From assembly GCA_038087875.1 (NCBI GenBank), contig CM075993.1, positions 186,001 through 248,000 on the forward strand: a stretch of DNA of 62,000 nucleotides. Reading direction: 5' to 3'. Both the position numbers and the translations under genes were made by a program. The stretch is from Malacoraja senta (Eukaryota). Shown one piece after another: positions 18,136-47,846 of this stretch. The first letter of the stretch is position 1. Each line of letters starts with the position of its first letter. A model generated the notes under the pieces. The model did not search any database, was not told the origin of the DNA, and saw only the letters and a program-made list of their open reading frames with translations.

Positions 18136-20165
18136 ACTCGGACCGACCCTGTTACTGCTATCCAAATGTTCGGCTATTTCATCTTTTATAATTGACTCCA
18201 GCATCTTCCCCACCACCGATGTCAGGCTAACTGGTCTATAATTTTATCTCTCCTGCCTTTCTTAAAAAGTGGGATAACATTAGCTACCCTCCAAACCACA
18301 GGAACTGATCCTGAGTCTATAGAACATTGGAAGATTATCACCAATGCATCCACGATTTCTAGAGCCACTTCCTTAAGTACCCTGGGATGCAGACCATCAG
18401 GCCCTGGGAATTTATCAGCCTTCAGTCCCATCAGTCTATCCAACACCATTTCCTGCCTAATGTGGATTTCCTTCAGTTCCTCCGTCACCCCAGATCCTCT
18501 GGCCACTACTATATCAAGAAGATTGTTTGTGTCCTCCTTAGTGAAGACAGATCCAAAGTACCTGTTCAACTCATCTGCCATTTCCTTGTTCCCCATAATA
18601 AATTCTCCTTTTTCGGTCTTCAAGGGTCCAACTTTGGTCTTAACTAATTTTTTCCTCTTCACATACCTAAAGAAGCTTTTACTATCCTGCTTTATATTCT
18701 TGGCTAGCTTACCTTCGTACCTCATCTTTTCTCCCCGTATTGTCTTTTTGGTTATCTTGGATAACACACAATGGAAACTACACTCGCCCCTCTGCAGGAA
18801 CTATACATCAGGAGGTGCAACTCCAGAGCCAATAAGATCATGGGAGACCCCTTCTACCCCTGCAACGGACTGTTCCAGCTGCTATGGTCAGGCAAAAGCC
18901 TCCGTTGCCATGCTGTGAGAACAGAGAGGCTGAGAAGGAGTTTCTTCCCAGAGGCCATTAGGACTGTAAACTCCTATCTCACCAGGGACTCTTTACTATA
19001 CCACTCTAATGTTTTTTAAAAATCGCTGTTTTTTTCCCCCTTTTTCCCCTTTTTCCTTCCGCCCACAATATTTAATATGTAAAAGAATATGTGATTCTAT
19101 TCTTCCATTCTGTTTGTAGTTTGTTTTTGCACAAAGTCCGCAAGCATTGCCACTTTTCATTTCACTTCACATCTCGTATGTGTATGTGACAATTAAACTT
19201 GACTTGACTTCTGTTGTTCTTAAACATTACCCAATCCTCTTGCTTCCCGCTCATCTTTGCTACGTTGTACTTCTTCGCTTTAATTTTTATACTGTCCCTG
19301 ACGTCCCTTGGTCGCCCCTTTCTTCCCTTGGAATCTTTCTTCCTCCCAGGAATGAACTAATCCTGCACCTTCTGTATTATTCCTAGAAATACCTGCCATT
19401 TTTGTTCCACTGTCATCCCTGCTAGTGTATCTTTGCAGTCAACTTTGGCCAGCTCCTCCCTCATGGCCCCATAGTCCCCTTTATTCAACTGCAACACTGA
19501 CACCTCCGATCTACCCTTCTCTCTCTCCAATTGTACCATACCATGTTATGGTCACTGCCTCCTAATGCCTCATTAATCTTGAGGTCCTTTATCAAATCCG
19601 GTTCATTACATAACCCTAAATCCAGAATTGCCTTCTCCCTGGTAGGCTCCAATACAAGCTGTTCTAAGAATCCATCACGAAGGCACTCTACAAAGTCCCT
19701 TTCTTGGGGTCCAGTACCAACCTGATTTTCCCAGTCTGCCTGCATGTTGAAATCTCCCATAACAACCACAGCATTACTTTTGCTACATGCTAATTTTAAC
19801 TCCTGATTCAACTTGCTCCCTATGTCCAGGCTACTGTTTGGGGGGCCTGTAGATTAGTCCCATTAGGGTCTTTTTACCCTTACAATTCCTTAGTTCTATC
19901 CATACTGACTCCACATCTCCTGTTTCAATGTCACCCCTTGCAAGGGACTGAATTTCATTCCTCACCAACAGAGCAACCCCATCCCCTCTGCCCACCTGTC
20001 TGTCTTTTCGATAGGAGATATACCCTTGAATATTCAGTTCCCAGCCCTGGCCCTCTTGTAGCCATGTCTCAGTAATTCCCACAACATCATAGTTGCCCGT
20101 TTCTAACTGAGCCTCAAGCTCGTCCACTTTATTCCTTATACTTCGCGCATTCATGTTCAGCACTT
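18136..20165 (-). mobile_element. CR1 LINE (APE endonuclease to RT N-terminus), interrupted by a Rex fragment
   Basis: NARSIRNK, VVGITETWL, MGDFN, GGSDHN, KFPGPDGLHPRVLKE. Confidence 0.9.
18759..19210 (+). mobile_element. Rex1/Babar-type LINE 3' end nested in CR1
   Basis: LQELYIRRC...RLRRSFFPEAIR; (CTTGA)n tail; splits the CR1 sequence gttatctt|ctgttg. Confidence 0.8.
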
Positions 20166-20341
20166 TGACCTCCGGATTCGACCTACATGATTGGAATTTT
20201 AATGTTTCTTAATGTTTTAATGTCACTAAGTTTGCAAAGAAAAATGTACAGCATGAAATATAATTGTCATTGCGGACACTTTGCCTTGGATGCTAATTGT
20301 TTTCATTTTCCCTTTTATTTAATGTGCTATCTGTCATTTAG

Positions 20342-20453
20342 CTGCAATTCCTTTGACTGATTCAGAACACAAACTGCTACCTTTGCACTTTGCAACGGAT
20401 CCCAAGGATTGGGAATGGGGAAAGGATGACAACGACAATATCAAACTGGCTAA
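20342..20453 (+). CDS. OTUD7A: OTUD7A exon: [37 protein letters not shown]
   Basis: tttag acceptor, GTAAGT donor; phase matches the previous exon. Confidence 0.93.
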
Positions 20454-20750
20454 GTAAGTGGGTGTGGTTCATTGCCATATTAACTTTTATCCCTTTCAGT
20501 GCGATAGATCAGTTAATGAACTCCTCCAGGCATGTATTAATTCATGCTCTGCATTCCATGTAGTAAGTGCAGTGTCTTTTCATTTGCAAATTGTGAACAC
20601 TCTTTCAGCTTCATCTGGTGACATCCAGATTGTTTGGGTTTGTATAAGTTCATTTCACAATCAAGATTTACTACATTTATCACTGAAGCTGTTTAAGTTT
20701 GTTTGTTTTCTGTGTTGATGCTTTTGTCATTCTGCATTCTTTTATTCCAG

Positions 20751-20835
20751 TTTGATCCTCTCCCTGGAAGCGAAACTTCACCTACTGCACAGCTACATGA
20801 ATGTGTCCTGGATTTGTATTCCTGCTGAAACCAGG
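20751..20835 (+). CDS. OTUD7A: OTUD7A exon: [28 protein letters not shown]
   Basis: ttccag acceptor, GTAATT donor; 85 bp, phase consistent. Confidence 0.93.
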
Positions 20836-21011
20836 GTAATTCCCTGCAACCTTGTACGAGAAGCACCAAAGGATCGTGCTGTGATATAATCGACATATGG
20901 ACCATTGCTCCAGTGATTCAGTGGAAAAGATATCTTGGCTCTGTGTGAAAGATTGTCATGAATTACATTGTAAATTAGCCTTACGGTATTGTAAGAAAGC
21001 TTTAAATACCT

Positions 21012-22400
21012 TAGAACATAGAACAGTACAGCACAGGAACACCCCCTATGCCCACAATATCTGTGCGAACATCATGCCAGGATCAACCCTTATCTGCCTG
21101 CATGCAATCCATGTCCCTCCATTCCCTGCCGATCCGTGTCCCTATCCAAAGATCTCTTAAATGCTGCTGTCATATCTGCCTCCATCACCATCCCTGGCTG
21201 CGCACATCTCATCTAAACTTTGTCCCTCACCTTAACTATGCCCTCTAGTCTTTGACATTTCTATTCTGGAGCAAAGGTTCTGACCGTCTGCCCTATTTAT
21301 GCCATTCATAATTTTATAATATCTTTTATAATATTTTATCTTCAACCTCTGACCAGGGAAAACAATCAAAATTTGTCCAGCCTCTCTTTATATTTAATAC
21401 GCACATATCCAGCCAACATTCTGGTAAATCTGTTGTGCGACCTCTCCAAAGCCTCCACATTGTTCCTGTAAAGGAGCCACCAGTACTCTAAATGCAGCCT
21501 AGCCAAAGTCCTATAAAGCTACAACTTGGCTTCCTGACTCTTCTACACAATCCCCTGACTGATGAAGGCAAGCATACCATATGCCTTCTGTACTACTTTA
21601 TCTATTTGTGTTGCTTTTTCCGGGAGCTATGAACTTGGACCCCAAGAACCCTCTGTAATCAATGCTGTTAACGGTCATGTTATTAACTGTATAATTTCCT
21701 CTTACATTCGGCCTCTTAAAATGCAACACCTCACACTTGCTTGGATTAAATTCCATCTGCCAGTTTCCCACCCATTTCTGCACTGTATACTTTGACAACT
21801 TTCCTCACAGTCCACAACTCCACATCTTGGTCTTATCTGCAAATTTACTAACTAACCATTCAAAATTTCTATCCAAGTCATTTATATATATGATAGAAAC
21901 CAGAGGTCCAAGCACAGAGATCCCTGTGGAAGTCCACTGGTCACAGACCCCCAGCCAGAGTAACAGTCTTCCACCACAACCCACTCAGTTCTTAGAGTAA
22001 GCCACCTCTGAATCCACATGACCACCATGGAGCCCATTACATTTTAATCTCCTGAATCAGCTTACTATGAGGGACTTTATTAAATGCTTTACTAAAATAC
22101 ATGTAGGCAACATCCTCAACCCTACCCTCATCAATGTCACCTCCTAGAAAAACTCCATCAAGTTCTTGCAGCGAGAAAAGCCATGCAGACTGTCCCCAGT
22201 TCGCCCATTCCTATTCAAATGATAGTAAATCCTATCAGAGAGTCCTCCAATAGCTTCCCTGCCACACACATGAGACACAACTTCCTGCATTATCCCTATT
22301 TTCCTCCTTAAACAAAGAAACAACACTGGTAACTCTCCAGTCCTCCAGGACCTCGCCTGTAATCTCACTGCAATCTCCCCTCTTGCCTCTCTCAATAACT
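21012..22400 (-). mobile_element. Old CR1 LINE (degenerate)
   Basis: WQMEFNPSKCEVLHF and EDWRV..VV.LFK remnants; CR1-type tail at ~21012. Confidence 0.75.
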
Positions 22401-23188
22401 TTTCTGTCCTTCTGGTGTCCCAAATGCCTGTATATTTGGAAAATGTAAGGCCTGTATAGAAGAAACCAGAAGTAATGCATAGCTTTCTTTACATTCAAAG
22501 TTTAATTCTCAATATATTAATCGTGTGATCACTTGTATACATTTAGCTCCTTTTATCTACAAAGCACCACATGTGGTCTCCTTCAACAATGCAACTTCCA
22601 GTTGAGTGGGGCCTTTACCCAGGGCTGAGCCACTCAGCGTTCAGTGGCAAGTCGCCTGCCATGATGGTGGTCCTTCCCCACAAAGCTTTGGCATTGGTAG
22701 CATCAAACGTTCCTTGGCATGTGGGTCTACAGCCTGGAATGTGCCAGCCAGTAGCATTCCCTTACTGACATCTCATGTACAAGACAACCAACAAGTTTTA
22801 GACATGCCAAAGAGACTTTTCCACGCAGCACACAATGTTTGTTTCAGTGCGAGTCCCTGGGAACAACTTGCAGATCAGGGTGTCTGGTATGCAGCTACTT
22901 GGGATGAACCTCGACAAGGATCAATTATTTTATGCCAGTGCATTTATAGGTGACAAATGATCAGCATAAGCTCAATAAGCCTGATGCTGTTACTCAAAGC
23001 TTGTTCACAGAGGGGTTTAGGTATTGGATGGTGATATTGTCACCAGAGATTGTGTAACCTGCCACAGAAGTCTTGGATCAGTCGAAGAGCTGCAGGCAGA
23101 CTTTGTAATTGTTTCTTTCTCAATATTTTTCTTAAAGTGTTGGTCAGAATTGTTTTTAAACTTATTCCTGCATAATTTGTATTGACAG

Positions 23189-24586
23189 GCACCTTTGGCC
23201 CAACCAGAGTCACCAACTGCTTCAGCAGGGGAGGATGTTCATTCTCTAGCTGACTCAATGGATTCAGACAGAGACTCCATCTGCAGCAACTCCAACCTGA
23301 ATGGAAACAGAAACAAGAAAGAGAAAGGAGATAAACAAAAGAAGGATAAGGAAAAGAACCGGACAGATTCTGTTGCAAACAAGCTTGGAAGCCTTAGTAA
23401 AACTCTGGGAATTAAACTGAAGAAAAACATGGGAGGACTTGGTGGCCTGGTGCATGGAAAGATCAGCCGGGGAAGCACCAGCAATGGGCGCAACGGAGAG
23501 ACAGTGGAGAAACTCAAGAAGAAAGAGTCCAACAAAACTCGGAAAGGAAGCAAGGAGGAGTCATCGCATTCTGCAAGCTCATCCCCTACAGATAAGTCAA
23601 CTGCCTCAGTTAAATCTCCAGTCGAGAAACAATCTGATCAGTGGAAATACAGCACCGATGTCAAACTCAGCCTCAACATACTGAGAGCTGCCATGCAAGG
23701 AGAGAGGAAGTTCATCTTTGCAGGTCTTCTGTTGACCAGTCATAGGCACCAGTTTCATGAGGAGATGATTAATTATTACCTGACCACTGCTCAGGAGCGC
23801 TTCAATGCTGAACAGGAACAGCGGCGCAAGGAGACAGAGAGAAAAACATGCAGCAACTCATGTAAAAACACGTGCAACAACTCTTCATGTAAAAAAGAGG
23901 AGCAAGAGCCATCTCGGAGAAGCAGGTCAGAACCAAATTCACAAGAGGACACATTTCAAGGCTCTTCTCAAAGCCATATAGGTCACCTGAGCTCAAACCT
24001 ACAGGGGATCAGTGACCAGATATCGATGAGCACTTCACCACCAAACGGTGGAACCCTTAAAGCTGGGACTCTCACCTCTGCCCATTTCACCCATACGCCA
24101 GCTTTGCTGCAGCATGTCATTCATGTATCTGAGGTGAGATCACAGCCATCAAGTTATCAATCTGACAATCAGTCACCCGTCATCAGCTCTCTGAAAACAT
24201 GTGCTACTTACCCGCAACATAGTCGCTCGATGTCTTATCAAAACTATTGCCCTGTGGGCCTGTCAGGGCTCCCTACTGTGGAAACCATGGAACCTCTGAA
24301 ATGTTTGCTGCCCCCTGAACACAAAAGTCACACATATACGAATGGGTTTGGTTCTGGTGATGTTAGTGATTACCTGGAATACGCAGATGAGGCCCCTTCC
24401 TTTGTGCGACAGAGTGGAGAGAAAAGCAAAGTGCGAGGTGTGGCAGCCACGCCTTATTCACTCCAACAGAACCGCTGCAAACAGCACAACTGCCCCTTCT
24501 ACGGACGCCCGGAGACTGAATTTTACTGCTCCTACTGCTACAAGGAGGAGCTGAAACGCAGGGATCGAGGAAACAGGTCTGTTTGA
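23189..24586 (+). CDS. OTUD7A: OTUD7A terminal coding exon with basic NLS-like region and A20-type zinc finger
   Basis: gacag acceptor; APLAQPESPTASAGEDV, KYSTDVKLSLNILRAAMQGERKFIFAGLLLTSHRHQFHEEM, CKQHNCPFYGRPETEFYCSYCY; TGA stop. Confidence 0.96.
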   Translation, partial: APLAQPESPTASAGEDVHSLADSMDSDRDSICSNSNLNGNRNKKEKGDKQKKDKEKNRTDSVANKLGSLSKTLGIKLKKNMGGLGGLVHGKISRGSTSNGRNGETVEKLKKKESNKTRKGSKEESSHSASSSPTDKSTASVKSPVEKQSDQWKYSTDVKLSLNILRAAMQGERKFIFAGLLLTSHRHQFHEEMINYYLTTAQERFNAEQEQRRKETERKTCSNSCKNTCNNSSCKKEEQEPSRRSRSEPNSQEDTFQGSSQSHIGHLSSNLQGISDQISMSTSPPNGGTLKAGTLTSAHFTHTPALLQHVIHVSEVRSQPSSYQSDNQSPVISSLKTCATYPQHSRSMSYQNYCPVGLSGLPTVETMEPLKCLLPPEHKSHTYTNGFGSGDVSDYLEYADEAPSFVRQSGEKSKVRGVAATPYSLQQNRCKQHNCPFYGRPETEFYCSYCYKEELKRRDRGNRSV

Positions 24587-27000
24587 CTGTGATGCTTGTA
24601 TGGAAAGTTCTTTCCAGCTTTTCCGTATGAACCAACTCTGGAAAATTACAAATATTTTGATGAGCAATTTGTTAAGTGTAAATCTTTAAATCAGGATCAA
24701 GAGTCTGTTCATTACCTTTCAAGAATCCTGGATCTGTGGAGTTGGATCTATTGGAACAGTGATGAATCTGTGCCTCTGGGATTGGAACCAGACCCTGACT
24801 CCTCCCCAGACTCCAGGGCAATATGAACCCTTCATGTTACTACTCCATGGACTGTTACCAAATAGTTGATTATATTCCAACATGTATGGTTTTTTTTAAT
24901 TACACTACTGCAAGATAATTTGCACATTAATTACAACTGTAAAAGTAACATATAGCAGAAAATAACCAATTATTTATGTGTTTGTGAACTGGAAGATGCA
25001 TTATGATGGAACTTTACAAGCAAAAGTTTAAAAATTGTAATATAGAAATTATTTTTATATTATTTTCACAAATGTGCTGCAAAGCAATATTTTGCGCTTT
25101 TTATTAAAACACAATTGCCACTTTAGTAGATGACTATATTGCTGAAACTAATTAGAGGCATACAGCAGCATTGTGATGTATGTTTACGGGCCCAAGGAGT
25201 GGCTTGAGTGTTCACACCTTTTGATACTTCGTCAACATGCAACTTCATTTGATGAAAGCTTTTTCCCCAAAGCTTATTTCCGATATTTCAATTAAAGCCT
25301 TGGCTACATCTGGTGCTGTGAAGCATCTGCTAAATTTATTTTGCTGTTTCAGCTTAGAATATCTCAAGAAGAAAAATGCACACTTATCTTGAATTTCCTG
25401 CCTGCAAACAGCACTTACCGTTGCAGATGCAAAGCAATTGAAAAGAGAAAGAAAGCCAATGAGCTGGGCACCTTCGACCTAAATCCAAAAACTTTGATTC
25501 ACTTGCCTGGTGACTGACATAAAAAATTCACAAGCAGTCGCATCTGGCTAAACTTGTCTTTTCATCTACTTACAGGAGCATTAGACAATGGCCTAGGTTA
25601 GCAGCTGAGCACCGTGACGCTCCTGATGCAGATATTCTGTAAGTCATGACAAGGGAGCATTTCCTAGAGTTCCTTTAAAAATGTAAAGCAACTATTTCTG
25701 TGTAGTTTTTATTTTCAATGATTTTGTCTTCTGCTTTAATATGAAATTAAACTCTGGAAATACTTTATTCTACATTGATCTTAGCACTATGCACACAATG
25801 ACAGAAGCAAAAATAAAGGGATGAGGTTTCCTCATGGCCTCCCCTCCTCCCCCCCCCCCCCCCCAAACAACCTGAATCTGTTGTATGACCCATTGACCCC
25901 CTGCAACCTTTTCCTTCGCCCCTTAACACTGTTCCTTCAATTAACCAAAAAGTGCAGCGAAGAATGCAAATAGAGCTAACTAACTTCACCGTAATACTTG
26001 ACTGGAATTCCTGTGTTATCTCTGCTGTTTATGGAACCCAGCAGTTTTGCTGCCTCAAGCATTGTTCATACAGGAAAACAAACTCCAGCACTATGTGGGA
26101 AGCTGCCCGTTTCTGATCCATCCTGAGCCCAGGCGATAAGTGTGTTCCCCATGAACGTGGGGGGAAATGCAAATGAGGTTAAAATATTAAACTGTTCCAT
26201 CCAAAGCCTCCTTCCACTGGGCACAGGAGAAATCTTCTGTTGAATCTTCCATGAAAATTTAAGGAGATTTTGGGGTTAATTGTATAATATTTACTGATTA
26301 TTGTGAACTTTCGGGACAAGCAAGTTCACTGAAACTTTAAAGAACAAAACTGAAAGAAAAATAAGCATTATTTTGTTGGATTTTAGAACAAGAAATGAGT
26401 TTAGGTGTGGCTAACATTTTTAGTAAAGATTTAAAGCATTTTAACCTAGAAAATAATAGTGAATTCAGGATAAGGTCCTTTTAAATATTGAACAACATAG
26501 TAGCTTTTGTTTAACTTAGGTTGGTTGTTCCTGGATTATTTTTCTGTATATAATCATCCTAAGATTTTCAAATGGTCGGAAGCATAAACTAGTTTTCAAA
26601 AGGTGGTTGAAATATAATGCCAAATCCTGAACAATATCTGGCAATAACGTCCGAGATTAAATAATGGATTGAACCTAATGTAAGAGGATGCGACCAAATT
26701 GAGCATTCACTGTGTGACACATTCTCTTCCTTGTTTGATCATAATATTCTGCATTGTTTTAAATGTTTGTCACCCAACTTGCACTGAAAAATTAAAACCC
26801 AAGTTATTCCGACTTTCTGTATTGCAATGTTTTCTGTGTCTTTATAAAATTAAGAAATAATACTGTTTCAATTGTAGATTGTTGATCTGAATGTCTGACA
26901 GATTGAGTGGTTATATGGGGAATCGCAAAAGAAGATTCTCTTAGAGAAAATGTCTTGCATGGTTTAATTTCAAGAAATAAATTGACAGTCTTATTCTATG
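24587..27000 (+). other. OTUD7A: Probable OTUD7A 3' UTR (end uncertain)
   Basis: AT-rich, transposon-free stretch after the stop; candidate poly(A) signals AATAAA 25812, ATTAAA 26791, AATAAA ~26976. Confidence 0.5.
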
Positions 27001-27526
27001 ATGTATTAAATGATCTGGAAATTGAGCGATTGAACCTGGTCGCTGAGGAGAGGTTAACATTACACATTTATTTTCTAAGTCGATATACAAGGAAGCCATG
27101 GCTTGGGCGAATCGGTGCTTTGTTCTTTATCCTTACAAGCATTACCTGAAGATTCAGGATTTGTTCAGCAACATCAGTTTAAAATATGATGTTTGTGTAA
27201 TGAAGCTATATACAAATCATTTCATTGATTAATGCATATTTTACGAGTTGTGAAGAAAATGTAACCATCATTGTTCTCTATTCCACTGCATAATGCTGTC
27301 CAGCTCAGTTCAATAATCATCGTCACTCAGCACAGAAACAGCCCTAAGCCCACCATCTCCGAGTCCACCTCTGTAGAACACAGTGCTGGAGTATCTCAGC
27401 GGATTAGGCAGCATCGGAGGATATGGTTAGGCAATGCTTTGGGTACGAGACTTCATGCGATGTGCCTGACCTGCTGAGTTACTCCAGCACTGTGCATGAT
27501 TCCTGCATCTGCAATTCATTCTGTCT

Positions 27527-30500
27527 TTCAATAAGATCCTCTCTCGCCCTTCTAAATTCCAGAGTATACAAGCCCAGCCGCTCCATTCTATTAACATATG
27601 ACAGACCCGCCATCCCGGGAATTAACCTCGTGAACCTATGCTGCACTCCCTCATTAGCAAGAATGTCCTTCCTCAAATTTGGAGACCAAAACTGCACACA
27701 ATACTCCAGGTGTGGTCTCACTAGGGCCCAGTACAACTGCAGAAGAACTGCTTTGCTCCTATACTCCTCTCTTGTTATGAAGGCCAACATGCCATTCGCT
27801 TTCTTCACTGCCTGCTGTACCTGCATGCTTGTTTTCAGTGACTGATAAACAAGGACCCCCCCCCCCACCCCGATCCCATTGTACTTCCCCTTTTCCCAAT
27901 TTGACACCATTTAGATAATAATCTGCCTTCCTGTTTTTGCCACCTAAGTGGATAACCTCACATTTATCCACATTAAACTGCATGTGCCTTGCATCTGCCC
28001 ACTCACCCAACCTGTCCAAGTCATCCTGCATCCTCAGCATCCTCCTCACAGTTCACACTGCCACCCAGCTTTGTGCCTTCTGCAAATTTACAAATGTTAC
28101 TTTTAATCCCTTCATCTAAATCATTAATATATATTGTAAATAGCTACAGTCCCAGCAGCGAGCCTTGCGATGCCCCACTAGTCACTGTCTGCCAACCTGA
28201 AAGGGACCCGTTAATCCCTACTCTGTTTCCTGTCTGCCAACCAATTTTCTATCCATGTCAGCGCCCTACCCCCAATACCAGGTGCTCTAATTTTGCCCAC
28301 TAATCTCCTATGTGGGACCTTATCAAATGCTTTCTGAATGTCCAGGTACACTACATCCACCCTTGTCAATTTTATTAGTTACATCCTCAAAAAATTCCTG
28401 AAGATTAGTCAAGAATGATTTCCCCTTCGTAAATCCATGCTTACTCGGATCCTGCGACTGCTATCCAAATGTGCTGCTATTTCATCTTTTATAATTGACT
28501 CCAGCATCTTCCCAACCACCAATGTCGGGCTAACTGGTCTATAATTCCCTGTTTTCTCCATCCCATTTTTAAAAAGTGGGATAACATTAGCTACCCTCCA
28601 ATCCACAGGAACTGATCCTGAGCCTTTAGAACATTGGAAAATTATCACCATTGCATCCACGATTTCTAGAGACACTTCCTTAAGTACCCTGGGATGCAAA
28701 CCATCAGGCCATGGGGATTTATCAGCCTTCAGTCCCATCAGTCTACCCAACACCATTTCCTGCCAAATGTGAATCTCCTTAAGTTCCTCCATCTCCCTAG
28801 ATCCTCTGGCCACTAGTACATCAGGGAGACTGTGTCCTCCTTAGTGTAGACAGATCCAAAGTACCTGTTCAGCCATTTCCTTGTTCCCCATAATAAATTT
28901 ACCCTTTTCAGTCTTTAAGGGTCCAATTTCAGTCGTATCTATTTTTTTCCTCTTCACATACCTAATGAAGCTTTTACTATCCTCCTTTATATTATTGGCT
29001 AGCTTACCTTTATAACTCATCTTTTCTCCCCATATTGCCTTTTTAGTTATCTTCTGTTGCTCTTTAAAAGTTACCCAATCCTCTGGCTTCCCGCTCATCT
29101 TTGCTATATTATACTTGTTCTATTTTATTTTTATACTGTCCCTGACATCCCTTGTCAGCGACGGTCGCCCCTTACTCCCCTTGGAATCGTTCTTCCTCTT
29201 TGGAATTAACTGTCAAGTCAAGTTTATTCGTCACATACACATACGAGATGTGCAGTGAAATGAAAAGTGGCAATGCTTGCGGATTGTGCAAAAAAAAACT
29301 ACGAAACAGAATGGAACAGAATCACATATTCACATATTACATATTTATGGGAGGGAAAAAAAGAAAAAACAGCAATTTTAAAAAGACACCACACAACAGT
29401 AAATTGGTACAGTGAAGTTAGTCCCTGGTGAGATTGGAGTTTACAGTCCTAATGGCCTCTGGGAAGAAACTTCTTCTCATCCTCTCCGTTTTCACAGCAT
29501 GGCAAAGGAGGCATTTGCCTGACCATAGCAGCTGGAACAGTGTTGCTGGGGTGGTAGGGGTCCCCCATGACCTTGTTGGCTCTGGAGTTGCACCTTGTGA
29601 TGTATAGTTCCTGCAGGGGGGTGAGTGTATTTCCCATAGTGCGTTCGGCCGAACGCACTACTCTCTGCAGAGCCTTCTTGTCCTGGGCAGAGCAGTTCCA
29701 AAACCAAATTGTGATGTTTCCGGACAAGATGCTTTCTACAGCCGCTGAGTAGAAGCACTGGAGGATCCTCCGAGACACTCTGAATTTCCTCAATTGTCTG
29801 AGGTGGTAAAGACGCTTCCTTGCCTTACTCACCAGTGCGGCAGCGTGTGATGTCCATGTCAGATCCTCTGAGATGTGGACTCCCGGTATTTAAAGCAGCT
29901 CACCCTATCCACAGTATCCCCATTTATCATCAATGGTGTGTACGTCCTCGGATGTTGTGCCCTCCTAAAGTCCACGATCAGCTCCTTAGTTTTTTTGACA
30001 TTCAAGAGGAGGCTGTTGTCCTGACACCAGAGTGCCAGATCAGCCACCTCCTCCCGGTAGGCCTTCTCATCGTTATCGGAGATCAGGCCCACCACCACAG
30101 TGTCATCAGCAAACTTGATTTTTGAGTTGGAGCTGAACCTAGCCTTACAGTCATGTGTGTACAGGGAGTACAGTAGGGGGCTGAGGACGCAACCCTGGGG
30201 GGATCCTGTGCTCAGGGTGAGAGTCTTTGATGTATTTCCTCCCATCTTGACTACCTGGGGCCTGGCGGTGAGAAAGTCCAGGACCCAGGCACACAGGGGG
30301 GTGTTGAGCCCCAATTCCAGCAGCTTCTCAGCAAGTCTGGTGGGGACTATCGTGTTGAAGGCTGAACTGAAGTTTATGAACAGCATCCTCACATAGTTCC
30401 CCCTTCTGCCTGTCAAAGTGAGAGAGAGCGGTGTGCAGAACCTGGGAGACCGCATCGTCCGTGGATCTGTTCGGACGGTATGCGAATTGTAGCGGGTCCA

Positions 30501-31090
30501 TGTTGCGAGGGAGGAAGGCGCAGATGTGTTTCTTGACCAGCCTCTCAAAGCATTTCATGACTACCGAGGTGAGGGCCACCGGACGGTAGTCATTCAGACA
30601 AGCTGGGGAGGCATTTTTTGGTACAGGTACAATGATGGATCCTGCACCTTCTGTATTATTCCCAGAAAAACCTACCATTGTTGTTCCACTGTCATCGCTG
30701 CTTGGGTATCTTTCCAGTCAACTTTGGCCAGCTCCTTCCTCATGGCTCCACAGTCCACTTTGTCCAACTGTAATACTGACACCTCTGATTTACCCTTCCT
30801 CTCAAATTGTAGATTAAAACATCATATTATGGTCATTACCTCCTAATGGCTCCTTTAACTCAATTTTCCTTATCAAATCCGGTTCATTACACAAGGCTAA
30901 ATCCAAAATTCCCTTCTCCCTGGTGGGCTCCAGTACAAGCTGCTCTAAGAATCCATCATGGAGGCACTCCACAAACTCCCTTCCTTGGGGTCCAGTACCA
31001 ACCTAACTTTTCCAGTCTACCTGCATGTTGGAATCTCCCATAACCCATAACATAAAGGTAGCATTACCTTTACGACATGCCATTTTAACT
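27527..31090 (-). mobile_element. CR1 LINE (frameshifted) split by a Rex insertion
   Basis: RT and APE remnants (PHLEYCVQFWSP; KSPWPDGLHPRVLKE; MGDSNMQVDW); sequence resumes at ~30638 after the insertion. Confidence 0.88.
29212..30632 (-). mobile_element. Rex1/Babar-type LINE, 5'-truncated, nested in CR1
   Basis: [49 protein letters not shown]; (CTTGA)n tail. Confidence 0.88.
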
Positions 31091-31800
31091 CTTGAGGAAA
31101 GATGTAACGGGAAACTGAGGGGCAACTTTTTCACACAGAGGGTGGTGGGTGCATTGAATGAGCTGCTAGAGGAGGTTGGTGAGGCAGGTATTATAAGAAC
31201 ATTTAAAAGACATTTGGACAGGTACGTAGATAGAAAAGGTTTTGTAGGATATGGGCCAAACACGGCCAGGTGACACTAGTGTAGGTGAGGCATCTTGATC
31301 CACATGGGCAAGCTCTGGTGAAACAGCTGGGCCTGTTTCCATGTTATATGACTAGAATAAAATCCCATTCACATACCTAACGTAGTTTACAACCCAACAG
31401 TATGAACATCAAATTCACTGCCTTTACGTAGCCCCTCACTATACCAGCCCCTCTCTCCTTCCCCTGTGTCCCATCTGGGTGTTTTCGTCCCTCCATTCAC
31501 CCCCCCCCCCCCCCACTTTCCTCCCTCTAGCCTTACAATCTTCAAACCTGTCTCGCACCGTTTCTTATCTCTAGCCTTTGTTCCAACCATCTGCTTATCA
31601 ATCACCCCCCCCCCTCCCCAGCATGTCAACCTATTATCTGCCAGTCCTTGTCCGGCCTCTCTGCTTTTCCATCTTTCTTCTCCCCTCCTCCCTCTGCAAT
31701 CGGTCTAAAAAGGGGTCTCCACCCGAAACGTCACCTATCCATGTTTTCCGGGGGTGCTGCCTGATCCGTTGAGTTACTCCAGCACTTTGTGTCCTTTTGT
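31091..31800 (+). mobile_element. CR1 3' fragment followed by a Penelope 3' fragment with degenerate hammerhead
   Basis: LRGNFFTQRVV..LNEL..EV; then ...CCCGAAACGTCACC...GAGTTACTCCAGCA. Confidence 0.7.
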
Positions 31801-32374
31801 GTAATATTTATTTGCTATCCAAATCCTTCCACTTAAAATATTAAAGATTCTTCTTCTACTTTCCATTGGAGGATAATGACAATGACTCAATCCTCTGAAC
31901 TGGAGAATTATATCTCCAGGGTCACTCCCGAACTGTTGTAAACAGTAACCCCAGTCTGATTCTCCCACAAGCTGAGACTTCCTCTCCACATCCACTGTCA
32001 AAACCTGCACGATCTCATCTCTTCCAGCCTCCAGTGTAAGCACATCTTGCCCTTTCCAGGTATTGATACAGTTAACCTGCCCTGAACTGCTCCCAATCAT
32101 GTCAGTTTGGAAACCAGTGTGGTATCCATTGGCCAGAGGTGCTGTGACCTGGGCTCAATATAACATATCTAACTTTCCAACAATGAGCAATAATGCTCTG
32201 TTAGCTTTTGTAATTAAGGGCTGCATCTGCATAATGAGCCTGGTGTGCATTAAACACTCATATACACAGTTCCACGTTTAAGACATGAGATGATGTCCTG
32301 CCTATTTGCTGGAAATTTTGGGACAGATTTAGTTCCTCATCGTTGAACTCTGGCAGGGAAGATGCTCAATCCAA

Positions 32375-33000
32375 GAGTCCAGAGAGTTTAATTGTCATGG
32401 CTACTGACAATGGTGCAATGAAATTGTTACTTGTTACAGCTTGGTATAGTCACAATAACGTACTTACAAATTAATAATACTTAATTCAATAGATTAATAA
32501 CCATAAATAAGTAACCATGATAGTGAAAAACCAAAGTCTATAGTGCAACTAAGGACACAGTTCACAGAAGATCATAGTTGCTGAGGTTGGTGTTGTGCAG
32601 TGGTTGCTGGGCAGAAACTGTTCTTGAACATGGTGGTCACTGTTGTCAGGCTCTTGTACCTTCTCCCCGATGGTAGCAGCAAAATGAGAGCATGGCCAGG
32701 GTGATGCGAGTCTTTGATAATATTGGCTGCCTTTTTCAGGCAGTGTTTCCAATGGATGGAATGGTGGGGAGGTCAGACCTGTCATGGGCCTTCGTTCCTG
32801 GGTGTTCGAGTTACCAGACCAGGCCATATTTCAAACAGTTAGTGTGCTCTCTACTCTACAAATGTAGAGATTCTACTGAATATTTGTCAACTTACCAAAT
32901 CTCCTCAATCTTCTAAGGAAGTGGTGTTGTTAATCAGCTGTCTGTGCAATTGCATTAATGCAGTGGGCCCAGGAAATTTCCAGATATGCACACCCAGGAA
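32375..33000 (-). mobile_element. Old Rex1/Babar-like fragment
   Basis: Degenerate similarity to the 3' part of the 29212-30632 element. Confidence 0.55.
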
Positions 33001-33010
33001 CTCGAAGGGA

Positions 33011-33100
33011 GACAAAAATGCTGGAGAAACTCAGCGGGTGAGGCAGCATCCATGGAGCGAAGGAATAGGTGATGTTTCGTGTCGAGACCCTTCTTCAGAC
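33011..33100 (-). mobile_element. Short Penelope-derived hammerhead repeat; further copies at 34523-34612(-), 35823-35914(-), 38221-38350(+), 48040-48158(-)
   Basis: Reverse complement reads AGTCTGAAGAAGGGTCTCGAC..GAAAC.TCACC...GCTGAGTTTCTCCAGCA. Confidence 0.8.
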
Positions 33101-35789
33101 TCTCCTGTCGATGAAACAATCAACAAAATTGCTCATGCTGGAAATCCAAAATAAAATTAAAATCCTGGAAATACGGCAATGGGGGAAGGGACAAGAACCA
33201 TTGACTCTGTTTCTCTCTCTGCAGATGCTACAAAGCCAGCTGAGTATTCTCAGCATTTGCTGTTTTATCTGCGTTCACATACCAGGCAGTAAGTAACAAA
33301 GTGTTTCAGCCTGAAGTGTCAGAGCCACTACAGTGCCCACCCTCAGCAACATGGGGAGACATCCGATTCATTCCAAACACTCGTCGGCTCAGCAGCCTCA
33401 TTCCAGTAGGATTATAACTGTGCAGTTGATTTGTGATTAGAGGACACTTTTACAATGATGAATGTATCTAATCCGCTTCATGCAGACTCACATGTTTGGT
33501 TTACACATCTGGTGAAATGCCCAGGTTTTGATTTTTGTTCATATGGATCTGAGCTTCACTAAGCCAACGTGACCATTTAAGAGATGAGGATTGTGTTATG
33601 GGCATGGACTTGACCGTTCAGTTGCAGACACAGTGTGGAGTCCAGAGCAACGAGATGGGGTGACTGCCGCACTGAGACCCAGTGGGCATCGTAAGCAGGG
33701 ACAACATGGGGCAATGCCCAACATCCTCCTGGACCATCTGGCTGCAGGACGTTGCTCTCCTCCCAACTCTGACCGAACCCATGCTCTACAATGGTATAGA
33801 CATTTGCTGGCAGTGTTCAATTAAAGCAGGGAGTTTGAGCAGATCAACGTTTCATATGCAAGAGGGAAGGATTAAGAAATTTAAAATCAAGTCAATTGGA
33901 AAAATTTGGATTGATTAGCACAGTTAGTGTCACTAATGGTGACTGTAGACTGGCATTGTACTAAGTCACTAATTTGTTGATACCACCATCTGATTATGTG
34001 TGACTCCAGACGTGCATGCTTTGTTCACTCAACTACCCTCCGAAATTGACATGTGGCCATAAAAAATGTACATTCCCACCAAGATAATAAACTGACGATA
34101 CAACTTCTCATTGTTTACCTCTAATATTTAAAAAAAAACGCTGGAGGAACTCAGCAGCTCAGGCATCATCTGTGGAGTTACTGCTTGATCTACTGGGTTC
34201 CTCCAGAAGTTTGTTTTTTGCTCCAGATCCCATCATTTGCAATCTCTTGTGTCTAAGCCAACATAGTTCCCGAGCTCTGGCAGCAAAATATTTGAGATGG
34301 GAGCTAACCTGAAACCTTCTCTCAGAACAGCACAGCACAGGAACGGGACCTTTTCCACAGAAGACTGTGAAGGCAACACCACTGAACACGCTGAGGAAGA
34401 TCAAAAGATTTCCAGACACAAAGAACGGGGAGGGAGCTCAAGTACAGTAAGATGGAACTGCCCAAGAGGTTGGAAGGCTTACTACTGCTCCTAGAAAACT
34501 ATCATGTCAATAGACTTAGGAAGACACAAAATGCTGGAGTAACTTAGCAGGACAGGCAGCATATCTGAAGAGAAGGAATGGTTGACGTTTCAAGTCGAGA
34601 CCCTTCTTCAGGCGTCATTGGACTTGTTACGCCATCACTTTCACAAACAAATGAATTGAGAGCAAGAGAAGCAATTCGTCCTTGACCTGCTTGTAGATTG
34701 GTTACTTTACTTTCTAACCAATGCAGTGCTTTATTTTCATAGCTCCGCCTACTACGTTCATATTATTGCAACCCGGCATGTGCAGTCAGTCTATGCTGCT
34801 GCACAGTAGAAACAACATGCTGTAGTGTGTTATATGACTTACTCAATAAATACTGTTGTACCAGATCTGTCAGTATGTATGATTCACTCAACACTGTTCA
34901 TTTCATAACATTACAGCTGATGCAGTTTTCACCTCAAGCCCTGTGGCAAGCATGTAACACCTCTTGCCCCTCTGCTCATCCTTGCTCCACTTCGTTCCCA
35001 CACCCAAAGGACAACCTCGTTTGCTCCCAAGGAGTTCCATCTCACAGTTTTACTCACTTATAAAACACAACAGGCCAGGCACCAACTGTGGAGGAAAATG
35101 GACAAATGATAGGGTCAGGACTCTTCTTCAGACTGTTCATTATCCCCTCCGTAGATGCTGTCTGGCCCGCTGAGTCCTTCCAGCACTTTGTATTTTGCTC
35201 AGGATTTCAGCCTCTGGTGCCTCTCCTACTCACAACTCGCTTTATGCGTCTTTGTAACTGTCTTAATCTAAGATCTTGACTGAACTATCAGCTATCCCTC
35301 TGTGTTCACAGGTGCTGCCTGGCCCACTCCCAACAGTTTGTTCTTTGCCTTTAACTTTCCAGTCCTATTAAACAACATTCTGTTATTAAAGTTATTGGCC
35401 ACTGGGGAAGTCCAAACTAATCTCCAGCCTCTCAAACAGAGAGGAACCTTTTATTCAATCCCCATCCTAATGTTATTACTAATTCCCAACTGTGCCATCT
35501 ATGGGAGGTCCTGAGATTGTGAAAGGTTTTATAAAAATATGAAATATTTTTATTCTTCCTCATGAAGTCTAGATTTCTTGGTCAATTTGATATGGAATAA
35601 CTCGTGTGATCCAGAGGGCATTCTGACAAGTCGTGGCATATTCCCAAACTACAAGGAAACCAACGAGTTTCCATCAGATGGAATTCGCCGCCCAGCACAA
35701 TCGACACATGTTGGATTGTTGGCTGCGACATGATAAGGTGCTGGGTACAGTGCAGCATGGGTGTAACAGTTAGATTCGAGGGGGGGTGT

Positions 35790-36200
35790 GTGGATTAGGT
35801 TGGGCAACCCATGGAGGAAATGGACACAAAGTGCTGGAGTAACTCAGCGGGACAGGCAGCATCTCTGGAGAGAAGGAATGGATGACGTTTTGGGTCGAGA
35901 CCCTTATTCAGACTTAGTTGGTTACAAATTGATTTGCTGAATGGTGCAAAGATCAATAGTTTCCATGAGGCAGGCAACTACTGTTTTAATCCATAAATAG
36001 GAAAATTTCCAGCAATGGGAAATGCAAAAACGCAAAGTAAAGATTTTGCATCCATTTGTCACAGTAATTAATTGCCTCACAAGTGGCCATATGCCCTGAC
36101 TGTTTAGTGGTCAGTTTAGTTATGAGCTCAGTGGTCAGATTAGACTCCCAGCACCTGTAGTATAAAAGCCAGCGCTTGTCTCCTGCATTTGGTCTTTTCC
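35790..36200 (+). promoter_or_regulatory. Candidate TRPM1 promoter: TATA box plus OTX/CRX-type homeodomain sites
   Basis: TATAAAA 36161-36167; TAATCC 35987-35992; GGATTA 35792-35797; TAATTAATT ~36065; ~350 bp upstream of the first ATG; motifs are short, so inference only. Confidence 0.45.
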
Positions 36201-36514
36201 TGAGATTAGTTATTTCCATCTGACGCTTGGATGATTATGGAATATCCACTATGCAAAGCAGATTTATCTTCAATCACATTTGTTAAATCTCCATCCTTTC
36301 AGTGGATGTTGAAGCAGTGCATTAACCTGATTACAACGGGATAAAGTGGGCCAACTGCATGGTTCTGTGACTCATCCTGTCCACGTCACCCAGCACAGCT
36401 TCATGCTGTGATCTCTGTCCCTTGTTGAACACGGTGCATCCGACCACTGCCTGAAGCCAGAGCGATTCCCAACATGTGTGGAGACCCATCGGCGTGGGCA
36501 GGCTGCTGACGGAG

Positions 36515-36595
36515 ATGTTAACCAGTTCTCTCAAACAAATGAGTGGCTCTTTGAAACGTACGTCCATTAAACGCACTATATCTGGGTCGCAGAAG
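36515..36595 (+). CDS. TRPM1: TRPM1 first coding exon: (MLTSSLKQ)MSGSLKRTSIKRTISGSQK, start ATG 36515 or 36539
   Basis: Resembles the N-terminus of the long mammalian TRPM1 isoform (ending SGSQK); AAG|GTGAGT donor, phase 0 matches the next exon. Confidence 0.8.
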
Positions 36596-39008
36596 GTGAG
36601 TAAGAAGTTTGGGTCGAGGATGATTAGCTCGAGTTCTGTGAGCTCCAAGATTATTTGGGTATCTGGTGGGAAATGTCTAGATTCTGTGGCACAGGGTCAT
36701 AGCCAACTTCCTCGGCCCTGGTGTGTAGTCTGGTGCATGGGAGCTCTGTGCATTCACGGTCAACCCTCTCCTAAAAAGAGCAAAGTTGTTATTAAATGAC
36801 AGCAGTTAAAACAAAAATTAAACTTGCATATTGTTCGTGCCTTCTATAAGCCACAGTTTGAGGGAATGTGATGCTGTAGTTTGGGACAGTTTATGTGTCA
36901 TTCATTCTGGGATAGTAACACTCGCCCTTTTTAGTGCAAATTAATTACTTCAAAGTTTAAAATGTGTTCTGGAAAGTAATTTTTGAAATTATCTTATCAG
37001 GGAATATTTAACTGAGTGTAACATGTTGTCATTACTGGAATGAGCAGAATGACCGGGATCTAACCGTGTACATATGTGGGTAGTGTTTACTGAACAATAT
37101 TAGTATGATGTAAAATATTAAAACCATTTGTGATGTCAAGGTTGGGAAAGTTCTTGTTTTTGCATGGAGTTGTTTTCCAGTTCTACTCTGGGCATTGCGG
37201 CCAAACAAGGTGTGGAGTTCCCTCATACCTCCTAGGTCCAGGCTGCAGAAACAGCAGCTGAACATGATGTGTGGTGCCCATAAGATGGCTTCAGATTCAA
37301 GGATCAAGTATGGTCGATTATGTAGAAACAGGGACTGCAGATGCTGGTTTAAATTAAAGTTCACAAAGTGTTGGAGTAACTCAGTGGCTTACAACCACAA
37401 CATGGATGTTCTCCAGAGATTCTGCCTGACCTGCTGAGTAACTGCCGCACTTGCTGTCCTTTTATGTTAGATTATGTATTGGACAGTTGACATCTTGAGT
37501 TATGTCTCATCCATAAAATTAGTTTTACAATACGGGAGCAGTTTGTCCAACCCACTCTGGCCAGGGCAGAGCTAGAGCAACAAAATGCAGCTGCTATAAA
37601 TCAGAAGTAACAGCTTCACATTCTGACACTAGTTACCGGGTCGATACAACGCTTCAAGTCGTTGATCTGCAACTGCTCCGGGCAAACTCTCACCAGCGCC
37701 CAACCGCTCGGTTCCATGGCAGGGTCCCGGGACAGGGGGACGTCAGGATGGGAGGGCTCCTGGGATAGGTGGGGTGGTGGGGTGGGGGGGGGGGGGGGGA
37801 TCAGCATCCACAGTTTTTGTTTTCCATTCAGGTGAGATAGAGAGTATGGAGTTTGAGACAAAGAGATATGGACAAGCTAAATGAATGGGAGAGGTCGCGG
37901 CAGGTGGCATGTTATGTTTTTTCTGTGTTAATGATCCAGACTTGTGTGCAACTCATAATATCTAAGTTTGTTCTTGACCCAACATTGGGATAATAGTGAT
38001 ATTGCAGCACAAAATAAAGAGGGCAGTAGAATGGGGGACACATGAAAAATGAAGCTTAGTGAGGAGGGTGAGTGGATGCAATTTGTCGGAAAAATAAGGA
38101 GAAGCAATATTGATTAAAGCATCACAATGGTATTTATGCAGTTATTTATTTTATTCATACCTTTAATTCATTTGTTCTTTGTACCTTTTCATACCTCCAT
38201 GTTCCCTCTCCCCTGACTCTCAGTCAGAAGAAGGGTCTCGACCAGAAACATCACCATTCCTTCTTTCCAGAGATGCTGCCTGTCCAGCTGAGTTACTCCA
38301 GCAGTTTGTGTCTACCTTTGATTTAAACCAGCATCTGCAGTTCTTTCCTACACACTATGCCTCTCACAATTCTATCCATCAGCCTCCAATGCTCCAGAGT
38401 GAACAATCCATGTTTGCACCAATCTCTTCTTGTAACTAATTCTCTCTAATCGAGACAGCATCCTAGTAAACCTCCTCTGCACCCTTTCCAAACCATCCAC
38501 ATCCTTTCTGTAATATGGGTCAACAAGAACTGCACCCAATACACCACATGGAACCTTACCAAAGTCGCAAAAGTATAGAAGAATGAGATGTGATCTCACT
38601 GAGGTATAAAATAGCAAGCTAAATGACTGGGAGAATGTTTCCCCTCGTGTGACCATCATTGTTTCATTTGTTGTCTCAGGAGATCCACCTGTAAGCCTCT
38701 CCAGTCTCTCCTCCTCTTGTTTATCACTTTAAAATATTCATCATGTTTTTAACTCACCAATTCTCATATCTTTACTTTACTTCCTTATGTAACGTGTCAG
38801 TTTTAGTTGGTATACTGCAGAGGATCTGTTGCTGTAGGTGTGAGAACAGTGGGTGTCATCGCTGAGTGTAGGATAGTTTTCTGTTTGCAGCTCTCACACT
38901 GGGTTAATGCCAAAAGAGATTAACAGCCTTCTCACTGTATTACAGTATTCAAAAGCTTTCTAATATTCATGCCATCTGGATTGTAAAACTCTTTATTTCT
39001 AACTGCAG

Positions 39009-39088
39009 GGACACAAAGCTTGGATTGAGAAAAACTTTCAGAAGCGTGAATGTATTTTTATCATTCCCAACACCAAAGAACCGCACAG
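39009..39088 (+). CDS. TRPM1: TRPM1 exon 2: GHKAWIEKNFQKRECIFIIPNTKEPH(R)
   Basis: tgcag / GTAATG; WIEK.F.KREC motif. Confidence 0.92.
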
Positions 39089-39172
39089 GTAATGCTGGAG
39101 ACAAACAGGTTTCATTGGGGTGGTTGTGGTCTAGGGATTGGTGAATGAATGTCGACTCTGCTATTGTCCCAG

Positions 39173-39365
39173 GTGCTGCTGTGGTCAGCTGGTCAGTCAA
39201 CATGTCACGAGGCCCCAACCGATTCCATCCAGCACCACCACCGTGGAGGAGAAACCACCGGTTCAGGCTGAGAAATGGTCGCCCAGCAAACACACGGAGG
39301 CCGCGCCCACCGATGCCTTTGGGGTGATGGAGTTGCAGGGTGGTGGTCACACCAGCAGAGCCATG
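39173..39365 (+). CDS. TRPM1: TRPM1 exon 3: CCCGQ...EKWSPSKHT...PTDAFG.MELQGGGHTSRAM
   Basis: cccag / GTGAGC; MHR1 motif. Confidence 0.93.
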
Positions 39366-39924
39366 GTGAGCAACGTCGGGAGTCAGAGGGCCGGCTACAA
39401 ATGACACAGAGTTGGGGGTGTGGGGTCAGAGGGAGAGGCGACTGAGTCCTGGACGTGCCAGTGCATTGTCCAGCACAGAACAGCTATCCACCACCAGGGT
39501 CTGGTGGGTTGGGAAGTGGCTAGTTATGATACATGAGGTTATGGAGTTGGTGGAGAATTTGGTTGTGCTGATGGTGCTGGTTATGGAGGTGGGGATGTGG
39601 GAAGGGGAAAGGGAGTGTGGATTAGCGAGAGTGGGAAGGAGCTAGTGATGGGTAAAGGTGTTGGTGTGGGTGGGGCTGGGGTGGCTGGGTTGACCGTAGG
39701 CCATTCCACCCCTCGTGTTATGCAGCCCAATCTTGGCTGAGGTTTTGCCTCAGTTCTATTTTCCCGCGTGAATTCTCCATCTTGATTTCTGCCCTGAACA
39801 CTCAAGGACTTGCCTCCGCTGCCTTTTGGAGATAAAATTCCAAATAGTTCATTCATTGGCAGCATGAGGCAACATCTAATTGTCCTTGAGGGGATGGTGG
39901 TGATGCTGCCTCCCTGAGGTGTGG

Positions 39925-41140
39925 GGATGCCCTTTGCATCTGTTTTCACTGAGGAGAAGAACATGGAGGACAGTGAGATCAGTGTGAGGAATGCTAATGT
40001 GCAGGGACAGTTTGAGATGAAGAATGAGGAGGTGTTGGAGCTCTTGAAGAGCATTATGGTGGATAAATCTCCAGAACCTAATGAAATCTATCCCAGGTTA
40101 TTGCGATAGTCAAGAGAAGAGATTGCAGGAATCTTGACAAAGATCTTTGCATTTTCTCTTGCCACGAGTGAGTTCCCGGAGGACTGGAGAATTGCTAATA
40201 TTGTTTTTTTATTTAAGGAGAGAAATGGGTAGAATCCAGGAAGTTATGAGGTGGTGAGCCTCGCTTGAGTGTTTGGGAAAATATTTGAGAGCATTCTTCG
40301 GGATAGGATTTCATAAGACATACGCGCGGAATTGGGCCATTCAGACCATCGAGTCTACTCTGCCAAACAATCATGGCTGATCCATCTTTGATACCGTTAC
40401 TAATCAAGAACATGTCAATTTATGCTTTAAAAATACCCAATGACGGTCTCTGCAGCCAATGAATTCCACAAACTTGCCATCAGATTCACTTCCATTTGGA
40501 GGAGAATGGGTTAATTAAGGAGAGGATTTGTACTTGTCAGGTCGTGTTTTACTAACTTAGAGTCATAGAGTGATACAGTGTGGAAATAGGCCCTTGGGCC
40601 TAACTTGTCCACACCGGCCAACAATGTCCCAACTACACTAGTCCCACTTACCTGCGCTTGGTTCAACTTGATCGACTTTTTTGAGGAGATATCGAAGGTG
40701 ATCGATGAGGGTGGCATCGTGGATATTGCCTACATGGATTTGATAAAGTCCCCCACAATGGGCTGATCCAGAAGATTAAGGTGCACAGGATTAACAGTGA
40801 CTTGGTCGTATGGATTCAAAACTGGCTTATTGATAGAAGGCAGAGGATTGTGGTGGAAGGACAATATTCAGACTGGAGGTCTGACCAGTGGAGTTCGGCA
40901 GGGATCTGTGCTGGGACCGCTGTTGTTTGTGATGTATATAAATGACTTGGACGTAAACGTAGATGGGTTGGTTAGTAAATTTGCAGGAGACACCAAGATT
41001 TTGGTTGTGGACTGTGAGGAGGGCTGTCAGGGTATACAGCGGAATATCAATGGACTACAGACGGAATTTAATTCGAGCAAGTGAGAGGTGTTGCACTTTG
41101 GGAAGTGAAATGTAAGGAGAAAATATACAAACAATGGCAT
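39925..41140 (+). mobile_element. Old CR1 LINE with small nested CR1 tails
   Basis: FASVFTEE, DKSPEPNEIYPRLL, SGVRQGSVLGPLLF, KFAGDTK. Confidence 0.8.
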
Positions 41141-41668
41141 GAGCTGCACTACTTCCTTTTTTTTTTGCCTGAAAGCTGAAATGTTTCTGGAAACCCATGT
41201 ATTAATTCTTGAAATATTAGCCATTGATTGTTTACAGTGTACCTATCGGGGTATTTCCCCATTTCTTCCCCCGTGTCATAATTTGCTTTATTAAGAATCT
41301 AAAGCCCTAGTTTCAAATTGAACTAAATTACATTCCATTTCTTTCTAAAACTCTACAATATTCTGATTACTGTTCCCTTTAACTTCCAGCTAAACAATTA
41401 ACCCATTCTTGATACAGTTTAAATTTATCGTTCCCTTGTTGGTTGTTGGTTCCCCAACAAATTGCTTTAATAAATCATCTCTGTCTAGAATATGTACATG
41501 CTCCATGAATTGCTGCTCAATAGGGTAAGAGTTCTAGCTGCAGAGATCGAGAGGTTAAACATCATAAATGTGGACTGAAGTCCCGGTGATTCTATTACCC
41601 TTGTAACATGCTCCTCTACTTTCCTGATGTGTTCCATGCTTTACATAAGCATTATGTTTACATTGCAG

Positions 41669-43200: not shown

Positions 43201-43225
43201 GTCATTGAGAGTGCTTCTGTTGCAG

Positions 43226-45156: not shown

Positions 45157-45169
45157 GTAAGGTTAGGGT

Positions 45170-47843: not shown

Positions 47844-47846
47844 CAG

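Follow-up and report, generated by a model that had tools for sequence, protein, structure and literature searches.

The interval between OTUD7A and TRPM1

The window analyzed here, 62,000 nucleotides from the skate Malacoraja senta (GenBank assembly GCA_038087875.1, contig CM075993.1, positions 186,001 to 248,000 of the forward strand), carries coding exons of OTUD7A followed by those of TRPM1, two genes that are separated by KLF13 in human 15q13.3. Both lie on the forward strand, 11,928 bases separate the canonical OTUD7A stop codon (24584-24586) from the TRPM1 ATG at 36515, and the window contains no N bases. Neither KLF13 nor a remnant of it was detected between them. The first-pass annotation of this DNA had described OTUD7A as directly beside TRPM1, about 12 kb away, with KLF13 absent from the space between, and the motif, Pfam, profile, and tblastn searches reported below confirm that description. 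The human gap between the two genes measures several hundred kb. The human order is FAN1/MTMR15, MTMR10, TRPM1, KLF13, OTUD7A, CHRNA7 (PMC12705849). The skate block shares with human 15q13.3 the co-stranded OTUD7A and TRPM1, the intronic miR-211, and the order that continues with MTMR10 and FAN1, then APBA2 and TJP1; it differs in lacking KLF13, in having a gap of 12 kb, and in having extra OTUD7A 3' exons in the slot. The features are as follows, in window coordinates.

2198..24586, + strand: OTUD7A coding exons, from about residue 137 (thorny skate protein numbering) to the canonical stop, by tblastn of P0001
23189..24586, + strand: last canonical OTUD7A coding exon; it encodes the C-terminal zinc finger and contains an internal splice donor after 24576
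25576..25638, + strand: OTUD7A alternative 3' exon A, AG/GT intact; matched by P0001, P0242, and P0003, with the tail also in P0002 and P0605
27379..31095, - strand: cluster of decayed long interspersed nuclear element (LINE) fragments, with RVT_1 (Pfam) matches at 28214-28378, 29862-30554, and 30331-30717, very high contig depth, and other copies in the window
31500..35917, strand unassigned: unique DNA in which short high-copy repeats are interspersed (at about 31.5-31.8, 33.0-33.3, 34.5-34.6, 35.15-35.2, and 35.8-35.9 kb), without a KLF remnant, from contig depth, self-copies, and the KLF13 searches
34326..34494, + strand: OTUD7A alternative 3' exon B, matched in long form by P0242, P0003, and P0605 and in short form by P0001 and P0002
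36515..36595, + strand: TRPM1 first coding exon, matching the N termini of shark, ray, and chimaera TRPM1
36515..61353, + strand: TRPM1 coding exons as far as about residue 915; the gene continues beyond the window
43530..43615, + strand: miR-204/211 family hairpin in a TRPM1 intron (Rfam RF00646), miR-211 by position

The gap contains debris of LINEs and short interspersed nuclear elements together with the two alternative OTUD7A 3' exons, and 3,418 of its 11,928 bases have a further copy inside the window. The earlier reading of the gap as filled by 3' untranslated region and transposons is incomplete, because two alternative OTUD7A coding exons lie inside. Skate isoforms splice from 24576 to 25576-25638 and on to 34326-34494, or end at 34370 by way of an acceptor 5 bases farther on. 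Exon B thus has two acceptors 5 nucleotides apart; its long frame stops at 34492-34494, 2,021 bases upstream of the TRPM1 ATG, and its short frame runs from 34331 to a stop at 34368-34370. The isoforms are known from RefSeq records of thorny and little skate and from two transcript-type proteins, and every splice site that they use is intact in the window. Among the proteins fetched, the alternative tail was present in five (three named skate records and two others that are 98% alike), whereas OTUD7A records from sharks, other rays, and a softnose skate end at the canonical stop. The exons lengthen OTUD7A by about 30 or about 75 residues past its terminal zinc finger and were seen only in skate records; the last canonical exon is 98% identical to OTUD7A of Amblyraja radiata and Leucoraja erinacea. 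Judged from these records, transcription of OTUD7A in other skates runs through most of the slot left by KLF13, which argues against an assembly join there. In public contigs from both of two other organisms, the unique pieces of the gap had read depths like those of the flanking exons (48-54.6 versus 50.4 and 9.1-13 versus 11.7). Runs X1 and X2, which may derive from the source of the window itself, were left out of this comparison, and no RNA run was among those listed.

Searches for KLF13 at the locus

A six-frame motif scan found neither a strict C2H2 pattern nor a linker of the TG-E-K/R-P-F type anywhere in the window, so that the reported lack of a C2H2 triple finger and of a TGE(R/K)PF linker in the interval is upheld. 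The C2H2 family was found by Pfam in none of the 107 gap open reading frames (ORFs) of at least 50 amino acids (out of 160 of at least 40 amino acids), and the only strong matches, three reverse-transcriptase pieces and one family, fell within the LINE cluster. A hidden Markov model of the fingers, made from 11 KLF9/13-class sequences, scored at best -2.1 bits in the gap, compared with up to 2.4 bits in 20 shuffles and 175-176 bits in two positive controls. With a full-length profile of 118 KLF13 proteins, the best gap score was -4.6 bits, within the range of the shuffles (-6.0 to -2.6 for the 19 of 30 that scored at all), and tblastn with the same 118 proteins gave no gap match at an E value below 0.1. 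Nor did the full-length profile and tblastn reveal the N-terminal Sin3-interacting segment or the C-terminal tail of KLF13 in the gap.

The sensitivity of these searches was gauged with planted copies of KLF13 exon 2, which scored above all shuffles in 10 of 10 cases at 30% DNA divergence, 8 of 10 at 35%, 7 of 10 at 40%, and 3 of 10, barely, at 50%. As recovery drops beyond 30% divergence, an ancient KLF13 fragment could escape detection.

Three weaker signals were set aside. In the gap, the six-frame scan gave one loose C2H2 pattern, which has a stop inside, and one 5-residue motif at 34305-34291, which we judged to be a chance occurrence rather than a KLF trace. Outside the gap, a KLF finger-like match on the minus strand (41910-41761) was hit by 22 of the 118 KLF13 queries (best E value, 2e-4). 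The match is to the antisense frame of a conserved TRPM1 exon, and the histidine ligands are missing from it; on these sequence features we judge it to be due to chance.

Orthology of the skate block

The same annotation had offered as an alternative an OTUD7A-TRPM1-miR-211 block that arose as a second copy by duplication and then lost KLF13, and had noted that a divergent channel and microRNA would fit it. Our results do not agree with that proposal. TRPM1 in the window is identical to thorny skate XP_032870702.1 at 800 of 810 residues (98.8%), a record identified as thorny skate TRPM1 in PMC13143021, and OTUD7A is identical to the thorny skate (Amblyraja) protein at 677 of 683 residues (99.1%). 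Trees of both proteins, rooted on bony vertebrates, followed species order, with the window among the skates, the skates among the rays, and the elasmobranchs grouped with the chimaera; neither gene had a copy-specific long branch. The trees included no TRPM3 or OTUD7B, and no OTUD7B appeared in the best 120 OTUD7A matches. From these matches and the gene order in little skate, the idea that the window represents the OTUD7B/MTMR11 sister block was rejected. The window sequences lie farther from the elasmobranch ancestor than those of Carcharodon (0.15 versus 0.09 for TRPM1 and 0.14 versus 0.08 for OTUD7A, about 1.7 times in both, from tree branch lengths summed by hand). TRPM1 of Narcine and Mobula is as distant from that ancestor as TRPM1 of the window, and this, with the similar excess in both genes, points to a ray-wide rate effect and not to a relaxed extra copy.

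No stop or frameshift interrupts the matched TRPM1 exons of the window. The microRNA hairpin scored 66.3 bits against RF00646 (gathering score, 48.4), and its fold had a z score of -3.5 with none of 200 shuffles equally stable. Of the 22 positions in its mature arm, 2 depart from the Rfam consensus; neither is in the seed, which matches, and one follows it directly. Neither the channel nor the microRNA is unusually divergent. The single-copy TRPM1 with an intronic microRNA is the arrangement described for gnathostomes in PMC13143021, a 2026 survey with thorny skate among its species, in which chondrichthyans have a single TRPM1 and a single miR-211 and no 2R (genome-doubling) duplicate of TRPM1 or its microRNA was found to survive. 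No second skate copy of OTUD7A or TRPM1 was present among the matches listed (the best 120 of 508 for OTUD7A and of 1063 for TRPM1). By sequence, then, OTUD7A and TRPM1 here are ordinary chondrichthyan orthologs.

The window ends inside TRPM1, and the downstream neighbors are seen in little skate, where consecutive identifiers run otud7a (17098), LOC116968169 (17099), mtmr10, fan1, mphosph10, apba2, and tjp1 (17104) (PMC9605692 supplement). This is the canonical order, including the MTMR10, FAN1, APBA2, and TJP1 that served as markers for the synteny check. LOC116968169 is taken to be TRPM1 by its position, and no free identifier on either side of 17099 is left for KLF13. Beyond skates, OTUD7A and TRPM1 were on one contig (matched by size) in 15 of the 17 chondrichthyan species with both recorded, and in the other 2, TRPM1 was on a small scaffold. 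KLF13 and OTUD7A share a contig, again matched by size, in coelacanth, lungfish, Xenopus, caecilian, and reptile records.

In the electric ray Narcine bancroftii (P0009, P0254-P0261), two near-identical OTUD7A and TRPM1 blocks were present on one 107.7-Mb chromosome. The copies are identical at 890 of 892 and 1619 of 1620 residues, and in both blocks the OTUD7A and TRPM1 accessions follow each other without one in between; either a haplotype was left uncollapsed or the duplication is very recent. The Leucoraja erinacea TRPM1 record (P0246) carries the source flag "low quality protein," which probably reflects an assembly error in that record; the matched exons in the window are unbroken.

Fate of KLF13 in skates and other cartilaginous fishes

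The single OTUD7A-TRPM1 locus of skates is without KLF13, which is a real break in a well-conserved block, and loss of the gene is the most likely explanation. In full, the reading that we favor, at a probability of roughly 0.6, is that the window holds the skate's single ortholog of the 15q13.3 block, that KLF13 was deleted in the ancestor of skates and probably of all rays, and that it is probably gone from the genome as a whole. We hypothesize that the small two-exon gene was deleted so long ago or so cleanly that nothing of it is left, plausibly through recombination between copies of the repeats that abound here. The loss may have been tolerated because KLF9 and a KLF16-type ohnolog with near-identical fingers would remain, and OTUD7A transcripts, once KLF13 had been removed, may have run on and recruited the two extra 3' exons. 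A broader version can be offered only tentatively, in which KLF13 would be absent from all skates and rays and possibly from most cartilaginous fishes, with a takeover by the KLF16-type gene, further losses from the block, and annexation of the slot by OTUD7A.

The timing can be approached through accession order, a weak proxy for gene adjacency. OTUD7A and TRPM1 accessions follow each other almost directly in Leucoraja (..790 and ..792) and directly in the two Narcine blocks, a pattern that suggests a state common to rays. In a bamboo shark, one gene model (chiPu_0014746, GCC36253) lies between locus tags 0014745 and 0014747 in the 2018 annotation, and a second bamboo shark has two unused accession numbers in the slot (XP_043536272-273).

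Whether KLF13 survives elsewhere in the skate genome depends largely on one gene. LOC116989246 (identifier 14096) clustered one to one with mouse and chicken KLF13 in the OrthoVenn analysis of PMC9605692 (supplement); it lies about 3,000 identifiers from the block, near micos13 (14105), fam174c (14109), and klf2 (14214). Its position among these markers makes it probably the KLF16 ohnolog. We take micos13, fam174c, and klf2 to be genes of human 19p13, the sister region that carries KLF16. No KLF16 is present in the chicken tables, so a skate KLF16-type gene would pair with KLF13 by default. The accessible PMC9605692 table contains a skate klf9 symbol and no klf13 symbol. Most simply, KLF9 and a KLF16-type gene are retained in skates, the latter having been paired by default, and KLF13 is lacking. 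A 2015 survey of KLF9/13-class transcripts recorded one in little skate, two in catshark (one of them named KLF13), and none in elephant shark (PMC4558859). Homology searches added little here: among the best 120 of 3190 matches to KLF13 exon 2, all named ones were from lobe-finned fishes or tetrapods, and since ray-finned fishes were missing too, the result says nothing about sharks; a KLF13 profile search of representatives returned KLF13 in 1 of 150 cases, swamped by multi-finger proteins.

Several observations weigh against the loss of KLF13 in the skate ancestor or limit its reach. The OTUD7A and TRPM1 accession numbers are far apart in Amblyraja, Carcharodon, and Heptranchias, and those of elephant shark are consecutive (P002614-16 and P002617-19), in conflict with bamboo shark. 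A catshark-mouse reciprocal-match table (PMC13200729) has 12 Klf rows and, in its accessible part, no Klf13, with Klf9 missing as well. The annotation of little skate was transferred from thorny skate and scaffolded on it (PMC9605692), so the two are not independent evidence, and a GC-rich KLF13 that had gone without annotation would be missed; the 2015 little-skate data come from an incomplete transcriptome with 18 KLF/SP genes (PMC4558859). The KLF16-type label of LOC116989246 is drawn from neighbors 9 to 118 identifiers away and not from the sequence of the gene. Finally, no public contig spans the whole gap; parts are uncovered, and the pieces break at the LINE cluster (27.4-31.2 kb) and at short repeats.

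Absence from the locus supports the first alternative of the original annotation, loss or relocation of KLF13 in this lineage, with loss the likelier of the two. We consider it unlikely that KLF13 merely left the block and persists elsewhere, unannotated or as LOC116989246. The OrthoVenn pairing would fit such a move, the evidence for absence covers the locus, annotation tables, and transcripts rather than a whole-genome search, and GC-rich KLF genes are often missed, as the elephant shark count of zero illustrates (PMC4558859). However, LOC116989246 sits where the KLF16 ohnolog would be expected in any case, the default pairing accounts for its cluster, and it was left without a klf13 symbol although klf9 was named. 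It is improbable that adjacency of OTUD7A and TRPM1 is ancestral for jawed vertebrates and that KLF13 was inserted only in bony vertebrates, as the consecutive elephant shark identifiers and the catshark table without Klf13 might suggest. The gene model in the bamboo shark slot and the catshark transcript named KLF13 speak against it, and skate KLF13 is not downstream of TRPM1 either, by the little-skate identifiers. In the sister block at human 9q21, KLF9 presumably adjoins TRPM3, which would mean that the KLF-TRPM link predates the genome doublings and that loss is likelier than insertion.

An assembly artifact, in which KLF13 fell out where sequences were joined within the repeat cluster, appears very improbable. 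The lack of a spanning contig and the breaks at repeats leave some room for it, but the window is free of N bases, RefSeq models of thorny and little skate splice the same exons across the LINE cluster, the thorny-skate-based gene order has no gene in the slot, and several assemblies would have to share the omission. Least credible of all is a duplicated block that shed KLF13 while a complete block exists elsewhere. The paired Narcine blocks would give it a precedent, and a very divergent paralog could rank below the best 120 matches; against it stand the species-order trees, the roughly 99% identity to thorny skate genes, the canonical downstream neighbors in little skate, the missing second copy and 2R duplicate, and the Narcine copies themselves, which differ by 1 to 2 residues and have no accession between the genes in either.

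If KLF13 was lost as we propose, the block was kept without it, which would suggest that its conserved order is independent of KLF13 and that the gene is dispensable while KLF9 and a KLF16-type gene remain. Skate studies with an automatically assigned "KLF13 ortholog" may concern KLF16. KLF13 is removed in the human 15q13.3 deletion and has been linked to congenital heart defects (PMC12705849); should the loss extend to rays or most cartilaginous fishes, these animals would amount to natural knockouts, lacking a transcription factor of heart, blood, and brain that bony vertebrates keep. Loss of one ohnolog is a common kind of event, and published single-gene losses in cartilaginous fishes, as described in the accessible parts of those reports, include noggin1, pregnane X receptor, and shortwave opsins. 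The skate case resembles these three in that a conserved gene is missing with its neighborhood intact and paralogs in place; they differ in having been checked genome-wide, whereas the loss of KLF13 is seen at the locus and we infer it for the genome. In the open-access literature searched, no report addressed the synteny of KLF13 in cartilaginous fishes or its loss from them, and the absence of KLF13 from the skate block is probably undescribed. The text and supplement of PMC13143021 do not mention KLF, OTUD7, or MTMR genes, and the passages of PMC6354393 on CHRNA7 do not mention KLF, OTUD7, or TRPM.

Other parts of the block may also depart from the human arrangement. For CHRNA7, the other human neighbor of OTUD7A, the accessible PMC9605692 tables have no skate symbol, and identifier 17097, just before otud7a, is unlisted. 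The catshark reciprocal match of mouse Chrna7 is CHRNA8 (PMC13200729 supplement), and CHRNA7 has been described as present in all vertebrates examined (PMC6354393); a further loss or a misannotation in elasmobranchs is possible. The listed genes just before skate otud7a (nyap1, ache, and mink1) belong to another chromosome set, and the block may therefore lie near a scaffold end. In amniotes, MCEE, FAM189A1/ENTREP2, and NSMCE3 lie between MPHOSPH10, APBA2, and TJP1. The skate mphosph10, apba2, and tjp1 identifiers leave no slot for intervening genes (PMC9605692 supplement).

Transposons are also present in the OTUD7A introns. Decayed pol pieces resembling those of long terminal repeat retrotransposons lie at about 15150-18150 on the minus strand (family assigned by eye from the ORF list), next to a LINE reverse-transcriptase frame (13993-15198) that is almost intact. 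An open frame of 398 residues (9868-11061, plus strand) lies in an intron as well and is a candidate reverse transcriptase of the Penelope type, its end resembling GIY-YIG.

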